From NCBI GenBank assembly GCA_041548245.1, contig JBFESZ010000055.1, positions 1 to 13,382 on the forward strand: DNA of 13,382 nt, read 5' to 3'. The position numbers were made by a program. Numbering within the stretch: position 1 is the first letter of the stretch; each line of letters starts with the position of its first letter. Origin of the DNA: Sulfurimonadaceae bacterium. GTDB lineage: Bacteria > Campylobacterota > Campylobacteria > Campylobacterales > Sulfurimonadaceae. Below are positions 6,001-12,000 of the stretch, piece after piece.

Positions 6001-9000
6001 GGGCTGAGAGCTTTGTTGAAGAGACCTTAGAGAAGCTTTGTGTGAAAGATATCCAAACGCACTTCTTAACACACCTCCTTAAGCTTCATGGCTGGGCCGG
6101 TTTCATCAAGTATAGATCTGAGGATCCGGATTATGCTTCACAAGAAGAGTACCCATCTGCCTTGATCGATTATATTGCGATAAGACTTTTTCATGAGCAT
6201 AAAGCTGTAAGAAACAGTAAAATCAATGACTTTGAGGCCTTTGATGCCTATGCTAATGAGAACCTTAGTGATGTTATTTTACAGATACTTAAGCATAAGA
6301 ACATGCTTTTTGGGGCGGAACTGGATGCCCTAGAGGATAATGAGAAAACTAATAAGGTCTTATTGGAACATGTTACAAAAGAGTTGAATTTGGATGCTCT
6401 TCAAATCCAGCACTCTAATGAAGTTTTACAAAGTGATCTTCCACTCACAGAACTTGCTATTGTTTTAAAGAAGTTAAGAGAAGAAGAGGGGTATATTTGG
6501 CTTAAATCTCTTGAAGATTCGTATATCAATACTTACGTCGAAGAGATAACGAACCTTAAGCCTAAAGACGATGTACCAGCTATCGCTTCCGCGACATTTT
6601 GTTTGGATGTCCGTTCTGAGGTTATACGCCGATCGATTGAAGGTTCGGGCCCATACAAAACATTTGGTGCGGGAGGTTTTCTTGGTCTGCCTTTAAATTT
6701 TGTTGAGTTTGATAAGGCGCATGAGCAGTTCTTGGCACCGGCTATTGTTAAACCGCAAAACGTCGTCTTTGAAATACCTGTAGAAGCCCATGATGAATAC
6801 AGTTCGAAAAAGGGAATGAACAAAACGACTAAAAAAGTCCTAAGCGACTTAAAGAACAATCCTTACACTCCTTATATTATGGTCGAAGCAATTGGATGGA
6901 TCTTTGGAATTAATCTTTTTGGTAAGACTTTCTTGCCACAAAAGACAAATAAGTTCTTGTCTAAGTTTAAGCCAAGTAAACCAAAGACAAGATATACCTT
7001 GGATAAACTCTCATCGTATGAGATCGAATTTTATGTCAAAAAGCTTCACACTAAGATCATCCAATCAGTCTTGGTAGACAGCTCTAAAAAAGAGTATTCT
7101 GAAATTGAGGTGGAAGCAGTTAGAAACCATCTTCTGTTTGACACCAAATTAAAGTTTGAAGTCTCAGATGAGATCATTGAAAAACTTAAAACGTCATATC
7201 AGATCACACCGGAAGATTATGAGTACCAAAAAAAGAAACTGGCTATGGTTGGTTTTACACTTGAAGAGAAAGTCTCATATCTCTATAAATACTTGACAAT
7301 GATAGGTCAGGTTGACGCTTTCCCTGAGTTTGTGATGATTATTGGTCATGGTAGTATCTCTGACAATAATCCATTCGAGTCGGCTCTTGATTGTGGTGCC
7401 TGTGGTGGAAATATCTCTTTGCCAAATACACGAGCACTTTGTATGATAGCTAATTGCAAAGAAGTGCGTGAAGCGATCAAAGAAAAAGGTATTGATATTC
7501 CCGAAACTACAAAGTTTATGCCAGGTCTTCATATTACGTCAACAGATGAGATAAAGTTTTATGACACAGATATTTTAACACAGCAAGAAGCACCTAGATT
7601 TTTTAAGATAATGAGTGACTTTAATAAAGCCTCTGCATTGTCCAGGATTGAAAGAGCAAAGTCTCTTCCATGTACGCGTACACAAAAGGATATCATAATC
7701 AAGTCCATGGACTGGTCTGAGCCAAGACCAGAGTGGGGATTGGCGAAGAATATGGGTGTTTTTGCAGGACCGAGAGATTATACCAAGCACCTAGTGTTAA
7801 ATAATAGATTTTTTATGCACTCATATGACTGGACAGTCGACAATGATGATGCTGAGATACTGACACGTATTTTTGACGGGCCGTTGATTGTCGGTGAGTG
7901 GATCAACTTAGAGCACTATTTCTCTACGGTGGATAACCATGTCTATGGTGCCGGTTCAAAGGTATATCATAATATCGTCTCAAAAATAGGCGTTTTCAGC
8001 GGTAATTACAGTGACTTGAAGATAGGTCTTCCTATCCAATCTGTCTATCTGGAAGGAGAAGCATACCACGAGCCGGTAAGACTTCTTTCATTTGTAGAAG
8101 CACCATTGGAAAAAGTAGGAAAAGCAGTTGAGAATTCTATTGCAAAAGAGTTTATATTGAATGAGTGGATACGCCCTGTCATTTTCGACAGAGAAGCCAA
8201 AAAGGTCTACTCATATGAAAATGGTGAATTCATTGTAATCAAAGAACTTGAATAGTGCTTATTATAGTCTTAAACTTAAGGCAATATAGAATCTAAAAAA
8301 CAGTTAGTGCATATAAAGTACCAAGTGTTATAATTCCAAAATAAATATAAAAAGGGAAGAACATGTATAAAATTGTAATTGAAGAAGAATGCAGTTGTTT
8401 CAAAAAAAGTGATTTTGAAAATAATATGAGTTTTGATACAAGAGAAGATATGATCAATAAAGCACGGGTTTTGGAATGCCTTATGAACCAACAGTTTTGT
8501 ATGACACATTTTTTTGAAGCTGTAGATTACGGTGAGAAGATAGTGATACATAAAACTCTCAGACCTGAAGATGATGAAGATGATGAATACATCGAAGATG
8601 CAAGAGACCTTGTGAACAAGAGTGGCGTTACAATCGGCTTTGATGCTAGCAAAGAAGCTCCAAAAGGAAGCGGAGGAAACTAGGAATAATTTTAAAGAAA
8701 ATTATTCTCCTTCTAGAGCAAGAACAGGTTTAAAGCCTGTCTTTGGTCTTATTTTCAAACATCCTGCTGTTTCACTCATCGATAACCTTCCTCAAAAGAG
8801 TTGGAACTAGTTTATCCTGAAGGTTCTTTAGAACCTTGAAGATAAATCTTTTTTTATTAAAGCATCACTACTATCAAAAAGCACTTCAATTTCAGTTATT
8901 GTAACTATACTTCGCGAATAATCAATAAAAGGAAAGTTATGTATACAGTGAAAGTTGAGCATGAATGCGGATGTTTTAAAAGAAGTGAATATCAAAGTGA

Positions 9001-12000
9001 AAAAACATTTGATAGCCAGAAAGATGCATATAATTATACAAATATATTGGCCGAGTTCATGAATGAGGACTTCTGTTCAGCACACTTGTTCTTTCCTCAG
9101 AGAGTAAGTGATAATGAGTTTATGATCAAGGTAGCTGAGAATCCTAATGCAGGAAGCTCTTGTAGTACAGGCAGTTGTGGTCCCAGTGATCCTACCGGAT
9201 GTGGTACGGGAAGTTGTGGCTGCTAAGGAAGTGAAATACTTTCGTGTAAAGCTATGCGAGGGCAGTCAAGAGGTGAAGACTACACAAAGAATAATTATCC
9301 AGTTTACTTGGTTTGAAAGAAGCTCTTACAGATAGCTTTTTCATAACAGATTATCGTTGGTTTATCTGCCGGAGCATATTAGGCTTTTTTTGTAATCTTT
9401 TAGGGGGAATCAGATACATTGCTTGAACCGTAATATCAATAATCCTAAGATCTATATTTAACAGTATATGAATGTGGGTAAAAACGATTAGTTCACCTTA
9501 TATGACTGATCTTATGTGAGAAATATGCCTTTTTGACGTACAAGAGAACGGCTATAGTGTTACAATATTACCCATTGAAATAATCTAACATTACTTTGAT
9601 ATTGAAAGTATGTAACTATACTACTCAAGTCTAATAATTTTGAAATACACAGATACAGCAGGTTAGGTATACTTGGAGGCAAGAGAAAAACTTCCTGTTT
9701 ACATGTGCACTTTTTATTCTACCTCCTTCTAGTCAGCCGTTGACTGTGGGGTTTCATGAGGCTTTTAGGCTCGTTGTGCACTATCGTTTTAAGATATATA
9801 ATCTGACTTAGATAAAGATTTCTCAGCTGTATAACATGAAAAGTCAGCAAAGCGTTTAATATGTATATAAAGATAATTTTCGATACAATTAGCCACAAAT
9901 TCATGTTTTTCAAAGACTCTGAATGTAGTAGATGATACTTTCTGTCTGAAAAACCATATGTCTAATTTTAATGTTTATTATTAGATATGGGATTTAAAAA
10001 TGGTTTATGCACTTTTAGTGTAATTTTCGAAACTTTTTCATATAAAGGAGTCAACTATGACAAAGATAGTAACAGAAGGCCCTGCTGGGTATATGCCGCA
10101 GTCAGCACCTGCCATGGGAGTTAAGCTTGCACCAGAAGGTTCAGCTTTACTTTATGGTAATGTTGTCACACCTGAAGAGGCAATGAGAGATGCTGCTAAA
10201 GCATTGCTTACAAGAAAAAACCCAACAATTTTCCCTGGTCCACAAGTATTATGGGACTGGAAAGATGATGTTGCAGAAAAAGCTGCAGCTCTATTAGATC
10301 TTGCATCTGAGATTCCTAATTGTAAAATCATTCCAATGCCGGATTACAGACCAAAATATCCAAAGATCGATGTTAAGGCTGAGATCAATCCAAACCACCC
10401 AAATCTTACAATCCTTGATAATAGAATCGAAGCTTGTATTTTTGTTGGTGTACACTGTCACTACGCAAACCTTTCATTAAGAATGATCCGTGCGGGTACT
10501 AACTGTTATACAACTGCATTATGTGCTTATATGGGGCATGAAGAAGCAATGGCATCTATTAGAGATCTACATGCATCAGATATCCAAAATTTCAAAGAGA
10601 TCGTTATTGAAGAAAGAAACAAATTAGGCATTGAGTGGAAAACTACTCTACCACCTGAAAATCCATCTTTACAAAAAGAAGATTTCAGTGCATTGTCACC
10701 ACATGATTATGGCGAGTACAGAAGTCTCATCATGACCAAAAAAGGTGAACACGTAACTGAAACTGAATAAGGGAGAAATAAATGAGTAATGTAGATACAA
10801 GACCAAGACCAAACGATACGAAAAAATTCGTAGATATGAACTACCTGTTAAAAGAAGCTCCAAGAGAGCGAAACTTTATTACAGGTGCTCAAGCAATGGC
10901 AGAAGCTGTTAAAAGAGCAAACGTTGATATGGCAATTGCTTATCCTATTACACCACAGTCAGAGGTAATGCACCTTGTTGGTGATATTTATGCACAGGGT
11001 CACATCAAAGAGTACTATAGAGCTGAAGAAGAACTTGGTACGATGTCAGCAATCGCGGGTGCTGCTAGAGCGGGTGTACGTCTGTTTACAGCGACATCAG
11101 GTCCAGGACTTTTACGTGGTCTAGAAGCGATCGTTTCATGGTCAGGACACCGTGTTCCGGCTGTACTTGGTATTTTGACTCGTGTTGTAAATGCACCGTT
11201 GTCAATCCAGCCAGATAATATCGAAATGGCATATATGATGCACTGTGGTGCTGTTATGCTTCATGCTGAAAACCAGCAAGATACATTCGACATGACGTTG
11301 GCAGCTTTTGCTATCACTGAAAAAGTTGATGTTTATATTCCGGTAGCTGTTGCAACAGAAGGTTTCTTCGTTACACACGCTAAAGGTTATGTTAACATGA
11401 CTAGTGAAGAGTATGCACTTAATCACTTTGACCCAGTTGCTGCACCGGTTCCGGCTATGGATAATGAAACTCCACCAGCTAGAATCCAGCGTGATGCACC
11501 GGTTCAAAAGTCAAACTTCATGTCTTACCTGATTCACTCAGTATGGCAGCAAGAGATTTGGGATTCAAATGCTCGTGCGATGAAATATATCTATGAGTAC
11601 CTTGGCGGACCAATCGAAGTTCAAAACCCTGAAGCTGATGTCTTTGTTGTTGCTTCTGGTTGTGCTGCTGCACAGGCTAGAGAAGCGTGGAGATATTCAC
11701 AAGAAGCTGGTCTAAGTGTTGGTCTAATCAAAGTTAGAGCAATCAGACCATTCCCGATTGATGAAATCCGTGATGCGGTTAAGAATGCTAAGGCACTTAT
11801 CGTTCCTGAACACAACATCATTGGTTGGTTGTCTAAAGAAGTTAAAGCAGCGATTCCAAACGGTGGTATTGTTGTAGAAGGTCCAAGAGTATATGGTGGT
11901 ATGACACTTCCAGTTGAATTGATCATGAAAGAAATTCACACGTCTCTTGGTTTAGAGTACGATCTAAAATTATAATAAGGGGATAAAATGAGCTTAAAGT

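Follow-up and report, generated by a model that had tools for sequence, protein, structure and literature searches.

The DAB1-type CO2 pump of sulfur-oxidising Campylobacterota seems to have an additional fourth, and often fifth, component, to judge from the small proteins that are encoded right behind the pump genes. In a 13,382-nucleotide contig of a Sulfurimonadaceae bacterium (JBFESZ010000055.1 of assembly GCA_041548245.1; the whole stretch, called the window below, is contig C55 of this genome), two such genes encode proteins of 106 and 95 amino acids, here s106 and s95. They are members of two specialised, DAB-tied clades within a family of small Cys3His proteins that, going by our searches, is so far undescribed. 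A functional tie of some kind between s106 and the pump is likely. The reading we prefer is that s106 serves the pump in the cytosol as a dedicated accessory protein that controls or stabilises it; its probability of roughly 0.45 covers the whole reading, the regulator role too. The window is laid out as follows.

118..2313, minus strand: flanking 2-oxoacid:ferredoxin oxidoreductase genes (POR_N alpha, CO_dh-like and 4Fe-4S ferredoxin subunits)
3026..4657, plus strand: dabB, NuoL-like membrane subunit of the DAB pump (PF00361, E 1.5e-41; also PF00662)
4654..5385, plus strand: 243-aa membrane protein, probably DabC, the third subunit of DAB1-type pumps (from position and size only)
5382..8255, plus strand: dabA, beta-carbonic-anhydrase-like cytosolic subunit (PF10070, E 8e-203)
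8363..8683, plus strand: s106, first small CxC...CxxH protein, of the DAB-specific clade, 106 aa
8684..8860, plus strand: three hairpins after the s106 stop codon, two of them followed by T-runs, terminator-like (consensus match)
8939..9226, plus strand: s95, second small CxC...CxxH protein, with a Cys/Gly/Ser-rich tail, 95 aa
10057..13380, plus strand: second 2-oxoacid:ferredoxin oxidoreductase cluster (CO_dh-like, POR_N, TPP_enzyme_C, POR gamma), incomplete because it passes the contig end

The gene order is thus dabB, the 243-aa gene, dabA, s106 and s95, with the dabB reading frame running into the start of the gene that follows it. Across 26 related genome loci, dabB lies upstream of the 243-aa gene and dabA wherever there is sufficient upstream DNA, and the 243-aa gene sits between dabB and dabA in every genome or metagenome locus that has upstream DNA. 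Most of the related DAB loci are also flanked by homologues of the 4Fe-4S ferredoxin subunit. The 243-aa protein matched no Pfam or NCBIfam family and no PDB sequence; by position and size alone it is probably DabC, which is described as a small membrane subunit lacking a Pfam family (PMC13684180). DabA matches PDB entry 9rd0 (DabA2) at E 7e-77. Its candidate zinc ligands C407, D409, H656 and C671, which were mapped by motif and spacing rather than by structural alignment onto reference residues C351, D353, H524 and C539 (PMC13147460), are kept in 50 of 50 aligned DabA sequences. A PF10070 DabA carrying the C, D, H and C ligands, with a PF00361 DabB in the same operon, fits a DAB1-type pump. 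Downstream of s106, a hairpin scan gave a match at 8724-8740, the predicted RNA fold of 8684-8938 has an energy of -48.9 kcal/mol (z -2.0), and Rfam matched nothing within the window. The consensus match suggests that transcription may terminate after s106.

The initial annotation had flagged s106 and s95 as a pair of probably metal-binding proteins following dabA. Both open reading frames proved genuine, each preceded by a Shine-Dalgarno-like purine run, and the two proteins have a core of ~68 residues in common. Its four-residue signature, previously counted as invariant in a smaller set, held up among 368 distinct sequences covering the core: all of them have Cys10, Cys12 and His49, and 367 have Cys46, the lone exception having its Cys displaced by one residue. 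The ligand spacing is CxC-x33-C-x2-H. These four Cys/His residues, together with tails rich in Cys, Gly and His, suggest that the family binds metal. In s106 the core (residues 1-67) is followed by an acidic linker (68-79), a short helix (80-86) and a conserved C-terminal motif, V-T-I-G-F-D...P-K-x-x-G-G-N. An alignment of 49 s106-type sequences is invariant at Y2, C10, C12, S16, A34, E38, Q43, F45, C46, H49, F51, A53 and D55, clade-specific surface residues among them, and retains C39 in at least 90% of rows. The near-invariant Cys39, the acidic linker and the C-terminal motif, which is predicted to be disordered, are additions of the s106 type; the motif was not found elsewhere in the genome or in loci whose first gene lacks it, among them one flavour of the module in which the first gene encodes only about 77 aa. 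The s95-type proteins end instead in tails of variable length rich in Cys, Ser, Thr and Gly, with seven Cys between residues 75 and 95 in s95 itself.

The family extends well beyond this locus. A phmmer search of six-frame open reading frames found exactly the seven members that had been reported for the genome (two each on C55 and C54, one each on C145, C39 and C22; E 1e-5 to 1e-71, next match at E 0.2), but the true number may be five. The pair does recur after dabA on C54, as the initial annotation described; a hemerythrin gene separates its two members there. However, C54 may belong to a co-binned relative, since it is 74-87% identical to C55 over most of its length, the genome is a metagenome-assembled genome (MAG) with 5.67% contamination, and C54 holds a second trigger-factor gene, the other copy being on C16. 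If so, the second module is not this organism's and the count of paralogues falls to five. Pfam gave no match for s106 or s95 at E<=1, and the NCBIfam rows all lay far under cut-off (LigA, E 0.04; YcgN, E 0.01). The 95 database clusters counted earlier were recovered again, every one unnamed or "hypothetical," within a family that now comprises 279 clusters. In the ESM Atlas, only unnamed Campylobacterota clusters appeared. A scan of proteins of 194-2000 aa turned up no fused or longer forms, a negative of little weight. Searches of the literature on the family and on DAB returned no description of s106- or s95-type proteins in the text available to us, nor did the terms searched find them in the available portions of the DAB papers, whose supplementary operon tables might list them as hypothetical genes.

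Among 401 sampled Campylobacteria genomes, 74 carry the family and only 3 carry DabA, so that 72 of the 74 family-bearing genomes have no DabA. Most of the chemolithoautotrophic Campylobacterales families sampled have these small proteins, whereas none turned up in the three largest sampled families (0/118, 0/158 and 0/19 genomes). Copies away from DAB, whose existence had been noted before, occupy lineage-specific sites, e.g., trpS-X-serS and psd-X-mltA. Since most family members lie far from any dissolved inorganic carbon (DIC) gene, the basic function of the core is not DAB-specific. The idea that the pair travels with DAB therefore fails for the family as a whole.

For the two specialised clades, the same idea stands, and adjacency to dabA is near-obligate. 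An s106-type gene lies directly behind dabA in 25 of 25 species-level genome loci that have DNA after dabA. Conversely, in metagenome loci retrieved through s106 motifs, dabA is directly upstream in 65 of 69, or in 65 of 66 informative loci, as three of the four remaining cases have <200 nt upstream. An s95-type gene comes next in 43 of 68 loci. Many of these loci are not independent, stemming from populations that are closely related. The first genes after dabA form one clade (30 rows, SH-aLRT 93) and the second genes a separate one (21 rows, SH-aLRT 94). In the one informative metagenome locus without dabA directly upstream (L097), the s106-type gene follows a SulP-family permease. A permease of the same type is found within or beside three DAB loci (L028, L030 and L031), which points to inorganic-carbon uptake generally rather than to the zinc site of DabA. 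In a distant DAB1-type locus (G334), a P-II gene (PF00543, 3e-19) occupies exactly the slot of s106.

AlphaFold predicts a beta-beta-alpha-beta-beta fold for the core; in s95 the core has a pLDDT of about 90 and the tail about 50, and in s106 modelled alone the region of the C-terminal motif has low pLDDT. Foldseek found nothing in the PDB at E<=0.001. A wide VIA search peaked at Z 5.3 against POTRA domains, designed EEHEE miniproteins and GB1, matches that would reflect merely a common small arrangement and suggest no function. At the sequence level, a profile search of the PDB placed the zinc domain of Hsp33 on top (1xjh and 1i7f, CxC aligned to CxC), at nonsignificant E values of 0.11 and 0.79. 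Hsp33 likewise has a CxC followed about 30 residues on by a second pair, but that pair is CxxC rather than the Cys46-x2-His49 of 367/368 family sequences, and s106 and s95 stand alone, without a chaperone body. Hsp33 was not among the structural matches listed by Foldseek or VIA, and PF01430 (Hsp33) had no match in this 96%-complete MAG. A complex prediction of s106 with DabA chains 1-551 and 616-957, omitting the poorly conserved arm 552-615, scored 0.00 and is uninformative either way.

What might such a protein do beside DabA? One answer, which we consider unlikely, is zinc supply: s106 would dock on DabA and deliver zinc to the beta-carbonic-anhydrase-like site, with the s95 tail as a store. 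Zinc has been observed in DabA (PMC13684180; 10.1101/476713) and is required by it, in keeping with the invariant ligands described above. A zinc buffer would be useful in sulfidic water, where free zinc is scarce; a Cys3His site with Cys/Gly/His tails is typical of metal binders, and in 3 of 3 genomes of one genus, a family gene and znuA-znuC are arranged divergently. That arrangement, however, represents a single evolutionary event, four invariant ligands resemble a permanent structural site more than a transfer site, and the SulP permease that replaces dabA in one locus has no known zinc site. COG0523 metallochaperones (ZigA/ZNG1), with a proposed role in supplying zinc to client enzymes and a Cys-containing metal motif, offer a parallel in function, but they are GTPases of about 350 aa, unrelated to s106 and s95, which have no nucleotide-binding motif. 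Distinctly less probable is a small Fe-S or iron redox protein, such as a CDGSH-like 3Cys-1His [2Fe-2S] protein, linking pump activity to the pool of ferredoxin used by the 2-oxoacid:ferredoxin oxidoreductases encoded nearby. The ligand set (three Cys and one His, CxC first, with a fifth Cys in the s106 clade) recalls CDGSH/mitoNEET proteins, ferredoxin-dependent oxidoreductase genes flank DAB loci, and other family members sit beside thiC-apbC, queH, nifK, hemerythrin and a Mo/Fe4S4 oxidoreductase. These neighbours are nevertheless heterogeneous, and no zf-CDGSH, rubredoxin or ferredoxin Pfam model matched at E<=1. The CDGSH motif is CxC-x(about 8)-C-x3-H, as against 33 intervening residues here, and the predicted fold differs. 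To our knowledge, no Fe-S motif fits the CxC-x33-CxxH spacing, which also counts against this reading.

That the small genes are mere passengers, paralogues of a housekeeping protein that landed beside dabA and were co-inherited with it free of any functional link, would fit a family so common in genomes without DAB and usually found at unrelated sites. Yet the genes stay next to dabA in Sulfurimonas, Sulfuricurvum, Sulfurovum and MAGs labelled Arcobacteraceae although the flanks vary, the gaps to dabA are short (2-186 nt) with the strand shared, and the clade has invariant residues and a C-terminal motif of its own; we give this explanation little credence. The tails of the s95 type, with their Cys/Ser/Thr/Gly-rich composition and variable length, could also be taken for the core peptides of RiPP precursors behind a leader. 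This is highly improbable, as the "leader" is a confidently predicted folded domain that also occurs in tail-less family members. The window's open reading frames include no radical SAM, LanM/LanB/LanC or YcaO type enzyme, and we rejected the candidate.

Under the accessory-protein reading, dabB, dabC, dabA and s106 would, in that order, form a unit of four genes. A single metal site formed by Cys10, Cys12, Cys46 and His49 would hold the ~68-aa core together, or act as a sensor; zinc is the likeliest metal, and Cys39 may contribute in the s106 clade. The acidic linker would carry the conserved C-terminal peptide, disordered on its own, which may dock either on the pump or on another DIC transporter. 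Acting after translation, s106 could control or stabilise the pump as an on/off adaptor that responds to redox state or to metal. s95, from the sister clade, would be a facultative companion that binds or buffers metal through its Cys-rich tail. Such a role would be analogous to that of the P-II/SbtB-type proteins beside other inorganic-carbon transporters, which are likewise small, soluble and encoded directly after the transporter genes. Besides the P-II gene in the s106 slot of the distant locus, the H. neapolitanus gene cluster that contains DAB1 is drawn with a P-II gene (10.1101/476713). The likeness is one of position: s106 and s95 have no PF00543 match at E<=1 and no sequence relation to P-II, and the predicted fold of s106 has another order of elements and carries the Cys3His site. 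DabC offers a second parallel as an extra DAB-specific component that lacks a Pfam family and marks a pump subtype, but it is a membrane protein, whereas s106 and s95 are soluble and encoded after dabA.

Several points weigh against this reading: no structural match hints at a function, most family members sit away from DIC genes, the first gene of about 77 aa in one module flavour lacks the motif, and the positional likeness to P-II is only an analogy. Moreover, Thermocrinis DabABC expressed in carbonic anhydrase (CA)-free E. coli gave rescue, and H. neapolitanus dabC was required in such an assay (PMC13684180), so DAB in general does not need an s106-like protein. On the favourable side, the regulation of DAB and its protection from futile cycling are stated to be an open question (10.64898/2026.03.13.711513). 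A bolder version of the accessory-protein reading, which we hold as a speculation more apt to fail than to stand, is that s106-type proteins are, for inorganic-carbon uptake, a new class of switch acting after translation. The Cys3His site, with Cys39, would read the redox state, oxygen or sulfide, or the supply of metal, and would move the C-terminal peptide, which would plug or release the vectorial carbonic anhydrase DabA or, in some organisms, the SulP bicarbonate transporter, as a counterpart of P-II/SbtB in reverse-TCA autotrophs built on an unrelated, undescribed fold.

DAB pumps are the subject of current structural study and of engineering into crops and production strains. Conserved and so far unnamed, s106 accompanies the pump genes almost without exception in a whole lineage of reverse-TCA autotrophs, and it is a concrete candidate for a DAB regulator, maturation factor or extra subunit whose role is approachable by an existing assay, the rescue of CA-free E. 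coli. The proposed switch, if it exists, would make CO2 pumping depend on the state of the reverse TCA cycle, which is oxygen-sensitive.

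Five genes on the plus strand make up the DAB (CO2-uptake pump) module of the window, counted here through the two small CxC...CxxH genes that follow dabA:

3026 to 4657, plus strand: dabB (PF00361)
4654 to 5385, plus strand: ORF for a membrane protein of 243 aa, assigned to no family
5382 to 8255, plus strand: dabA (PF10070, E = 8e-203)
8363 to 8683, plus strand: s106, a small gene encoding 106 aa
8939 to 9226, plus strand: s95, a small gene encoding 95 aa

According to a portion of PMC13684180, DAB1 pumps are DabA-DabB-DabC heterotrimers, DabC being a small membrane protein that no Pfam family covers. 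On that description the 243-aa ORF probably encodes DabC, an assignment made from its position and size only. Three hairpins lie 3' of the s106 stop codon, with T-runs after two of them, so s95 may be transcribed separately from s106. The module is enclosed by two 2-oxoacid:ferredoxin oxidoreductase clusters with a CO_dh-like subunit (118 to 2313 and 10057 to 13380), and homologues of the ferredoxin subunit lie beside most related DAB loci. Co-location of DIC-transporter and rTCA genes had already been noted in general terms (parts of PMC10880623).

The two small genes belong to a new family of small proteins in which four Cys/His residues are invariant. As the initial annotation had claimed, both ORFs are present and paralogous to each other, and the MAG encodes seven members. 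The two match at E = 1e-11 and have a common core of ~68 aa; the next-best ORF of the MAG reached only E = 0.2. The proposed invariance also withstood a larger sample: among 368 distinct core-covering sequences, Cys10, Cys12, and His49 were present in all 368 and Cys46 in 367, the sole exception carrying a Cys shifted one residue later. Phe51 was likewise kept in 367/368. Neither protein had a Pfam match at E ≤ 1, and all NCBIfam rows fell far under the cut-off. Across 5.8 billion clusters, a profile search returned 279 family clusters, all unnamed or "hypothetical," which came from Sulfurovum, Sulfurimonas, or other Campylobacterota wherever a taxon was given.

An AlphaFold2 model of s95, built on a 49-sequence alignment, predicted a core with pLDDT of about 90 (residues 1 to 67) and a disordered tail. 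The predicted elements are a strand (2 to 6), a short helix (11 to 15), a strand (21 to 24), a long helix (27 to 44), and two further strands (49 to 57 and 60 to 67); in sequence, CxC falls between strand 1 and the short helix, and Cys46 and His49 between the long helix and strand 3. The s106 model has the core seen in s95; its acidic linker and its C terminus are of low confidence, with a short helix (80 to 86) between them. Foldseek found no match at E ≤ 0.001, and a VIA exhaustive search reached a top Z of 5.3, to POTRA domains, designed EEHEE miniproteins, and GB1, matches that reflect merely a common small arrangement. The Hsp33 zinc domain ranked top in a PDB sequence profile search, aligning CxC on CxC at nonsignificant E values of 0.11 and 0.79. 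Its second ligand pair is CxxC, whereas that of the small proteins is CxxH, and Hsp33 (PF01430) had no match in the 96%-complete window MAG.

The link to DAB suggested in the initial annotation did not extend to the family as a whole; it held for two clades, those containing s106 and s95, whose genes nearly always accompany a DAB1-type pump. Searching one genome per species with the window DabA yielded 26 loci, labeled Sulfurimonas, Sulfuricurvum, Sulfurovum, and Arcobacteraceae MAG, and every one with upstream DNA had the order dabB, 243-aa gene, dabA. An s106-type gene directly followed dabA in 25/25 species-level loci with DNA 3' of dabA, and 18 of the 25 also had an s95-type gene; two of the other seven end within about 600 nt. 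In the reverse test, a metagenome scan with two s106-specific peptide patterns gave 69 loci, which include near-duplicates from related samples and are thus not all independent, and dabA lay directly upstream of the s106-type gene in 65 of them. Three of the remaining four have <200 nt of upstream DNA, and one (L097) has a different upstream gene. The small gene was separated from dabA by 2 to 186 nt. Where at least 1.2 kb of DNA followed the first small gene (68 loci), a second family gene lay within that distance in 43. In a tree of 110 members over 72 columns, too few to settle the deeper branching, the genes placed first after dabA formed one clade (30 rows; SH-aLRT, 93) whose sisters are tail-bearing copies outside DAB loci. 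The second genes formed another (21 rows; SH-aLRT, 94), which includes a copy on contig C145 of the window MAG that is not beside DAB.

Within the s106 clade, Tyr2, Ser16, Ala34, Glu38, Gln43, Phe45, Phe51, Ala53, and Asp55 are invariant and Cys39 occurs in at least 90%; an acidic linker is typical, and the conserved end reads V-[TV]-I-G-F-D-...-P-K-x-x-G-G-N. The module came in two flavors. In that of the window, the first gene has about 105 aa and the C-terminal motif, and the tail of the second is of the ...C-S-T-G-S-C-G-C type. In the other, the first gene has about 77 aa and ends in an acidic run, and the second has the tail G-G-G-C-C-G-G-G-H-C or is missing.

Across an even sample of Campylobacteria, the family was present in 74/401 genomes and DabA in 3/401, one of these three without a family member. 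By GTDB family, members were found in 18/34, 17/20, 5/7, 21/23, 7/8, and 2/2 genomes and were absent from the three largest other sampled families (0/118, 0/158, and 0/19). Copies away from DAB loci mostly occur once per genome, in a place set by lineage: flanked by DUF520 and molybdopterin oxidoreductase genes, by psd and mltA, or by trpS and serS (several GTDB families), in a DUF190-crcB-X-amidoligase row with the family gene as X, adjoining queH or a hemerythrin gene, or near nifK. Divergent members occupy a thiC-X-apbC order in 2/2 genomes of one genus (L011:5065-5277 and L143:5051-5263). In 3/3 genomes of another genus (L006, L124, and L125) the member is divergent from the znuA-znuC zinc-uptake operon, a neighborhood that hints at a zinc link. 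Core-only members (about 68 to 72 aa) lie between or beside trpS and serS at loci L132 to L135 and L140 in several GTDB families, one adjoins trpS in the window MAG (C39:12496-12702), and in database protein P0109 a member runs through into the SerS N terminus. The trpS/serS site may be the ancestral location of the family.

A second DAB module had been reported on contig C54 of the same MAG. A module resembling that of C55, the window contig (13.4 kb), is indeed there: C54 has 74 to 87% nucleotide identity to C55 along most of its own length and the same neighbors, partly rearranged, flanking oxidoreductase genes included. That both belong to one genome is doubtful. The MAG (2.16 Mb; completeness, 95.95%) has 5.67% contamination, and C54 carries a second trigger-factor gene, the other copy being on C16 (C16:11112-12410); given these and its likeness to C55, C54 may come from a co-binned relative. 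The MAG is probably a mixture of two related populations, which makes copy numbers in the window genome unsafe. A hemerythrin HHE-domain gene separates the two small genes of C54 (C54:4752-5153), and another adjoins a family member in genome G394 (L018:5640-6158).

The exceptional locus L097 has a SulP-family permease gene (PF00916, 436 aa) in front of its s106-type gene. The s106-type gene that follows dabA in L095, a second contig of that metagenome study, shares 97.4% identity with the latter over 344 nt; both encode Ala at position 39. The permease, in which no STAS domain was detected, recurs within or next to DAB loci of Campylobacterota (L028:9769-11079, L030:2011-3318, L031:1919-3220, and L097:342-1652). 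A close homologue lies between s106 and s95 in L028, from the genus of the window, and in two Sulfuricurvum loci one is transcribed divergently from dabB; no family gene accompanies a further copy, in L144. SulP clades C and D are treated as bicarbonate transporters in part of PMC13147460. The permease may be a bicarbonate transporter belonging to the DAB gene island. A distant DAB1-type locus in genome G334, with DabA 33% identical, comprises dabB, a 246-aa membrane gene, and dabA of 1013 aa. Its dabA is followed directly by a P-II gene (L054:9416-9727), which overlaps the dabA end and fills the slot of s106 in the window. The H. neapolitanus gene cluster holding DAB1 is also drawn with a P-II gene, according to a figure legend in 10.1101/476713.

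Judging from their conservation, the four Cys/His residues would bind metal, most likely Zn, with Fe or Fe-S also possible at such a Cys3His site. The C-terminal peptide of s106, which is conserved and disordered, could serve as a docking motif, and the s106-type protein would act on the pump posttranslationally. We favor a role as regulator or adaptor of the pump, because other DAB loci have a small soluble regulator at the position of s106, because one s106-type gene goes with a SulP permease without a known zinc site, and because the invariant ligands resemble a permanent site rather than a transfer site. The main rival is a zinc chaperone or zinc buffer serving the beta-CA-like site of DabA, which the znuA neighborhood and the Cys-rich tails both fit. 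An Fe-S redox role, a hitch-hiker gene, and a RiPP precursor rank lower than either the regulator or the chaperone.

The small proteins were undescribed in full-text literature searches and in main-text parts of the DAB1 structure paper, the DAB2 structure preprint, the Desmarais preprint, and the Scott laboratory surveys. What is new, in our judgment, is that a DAB1 pump is supplemented in one lineage by one or two soluble components whose small Cys3His domain is undescribed.
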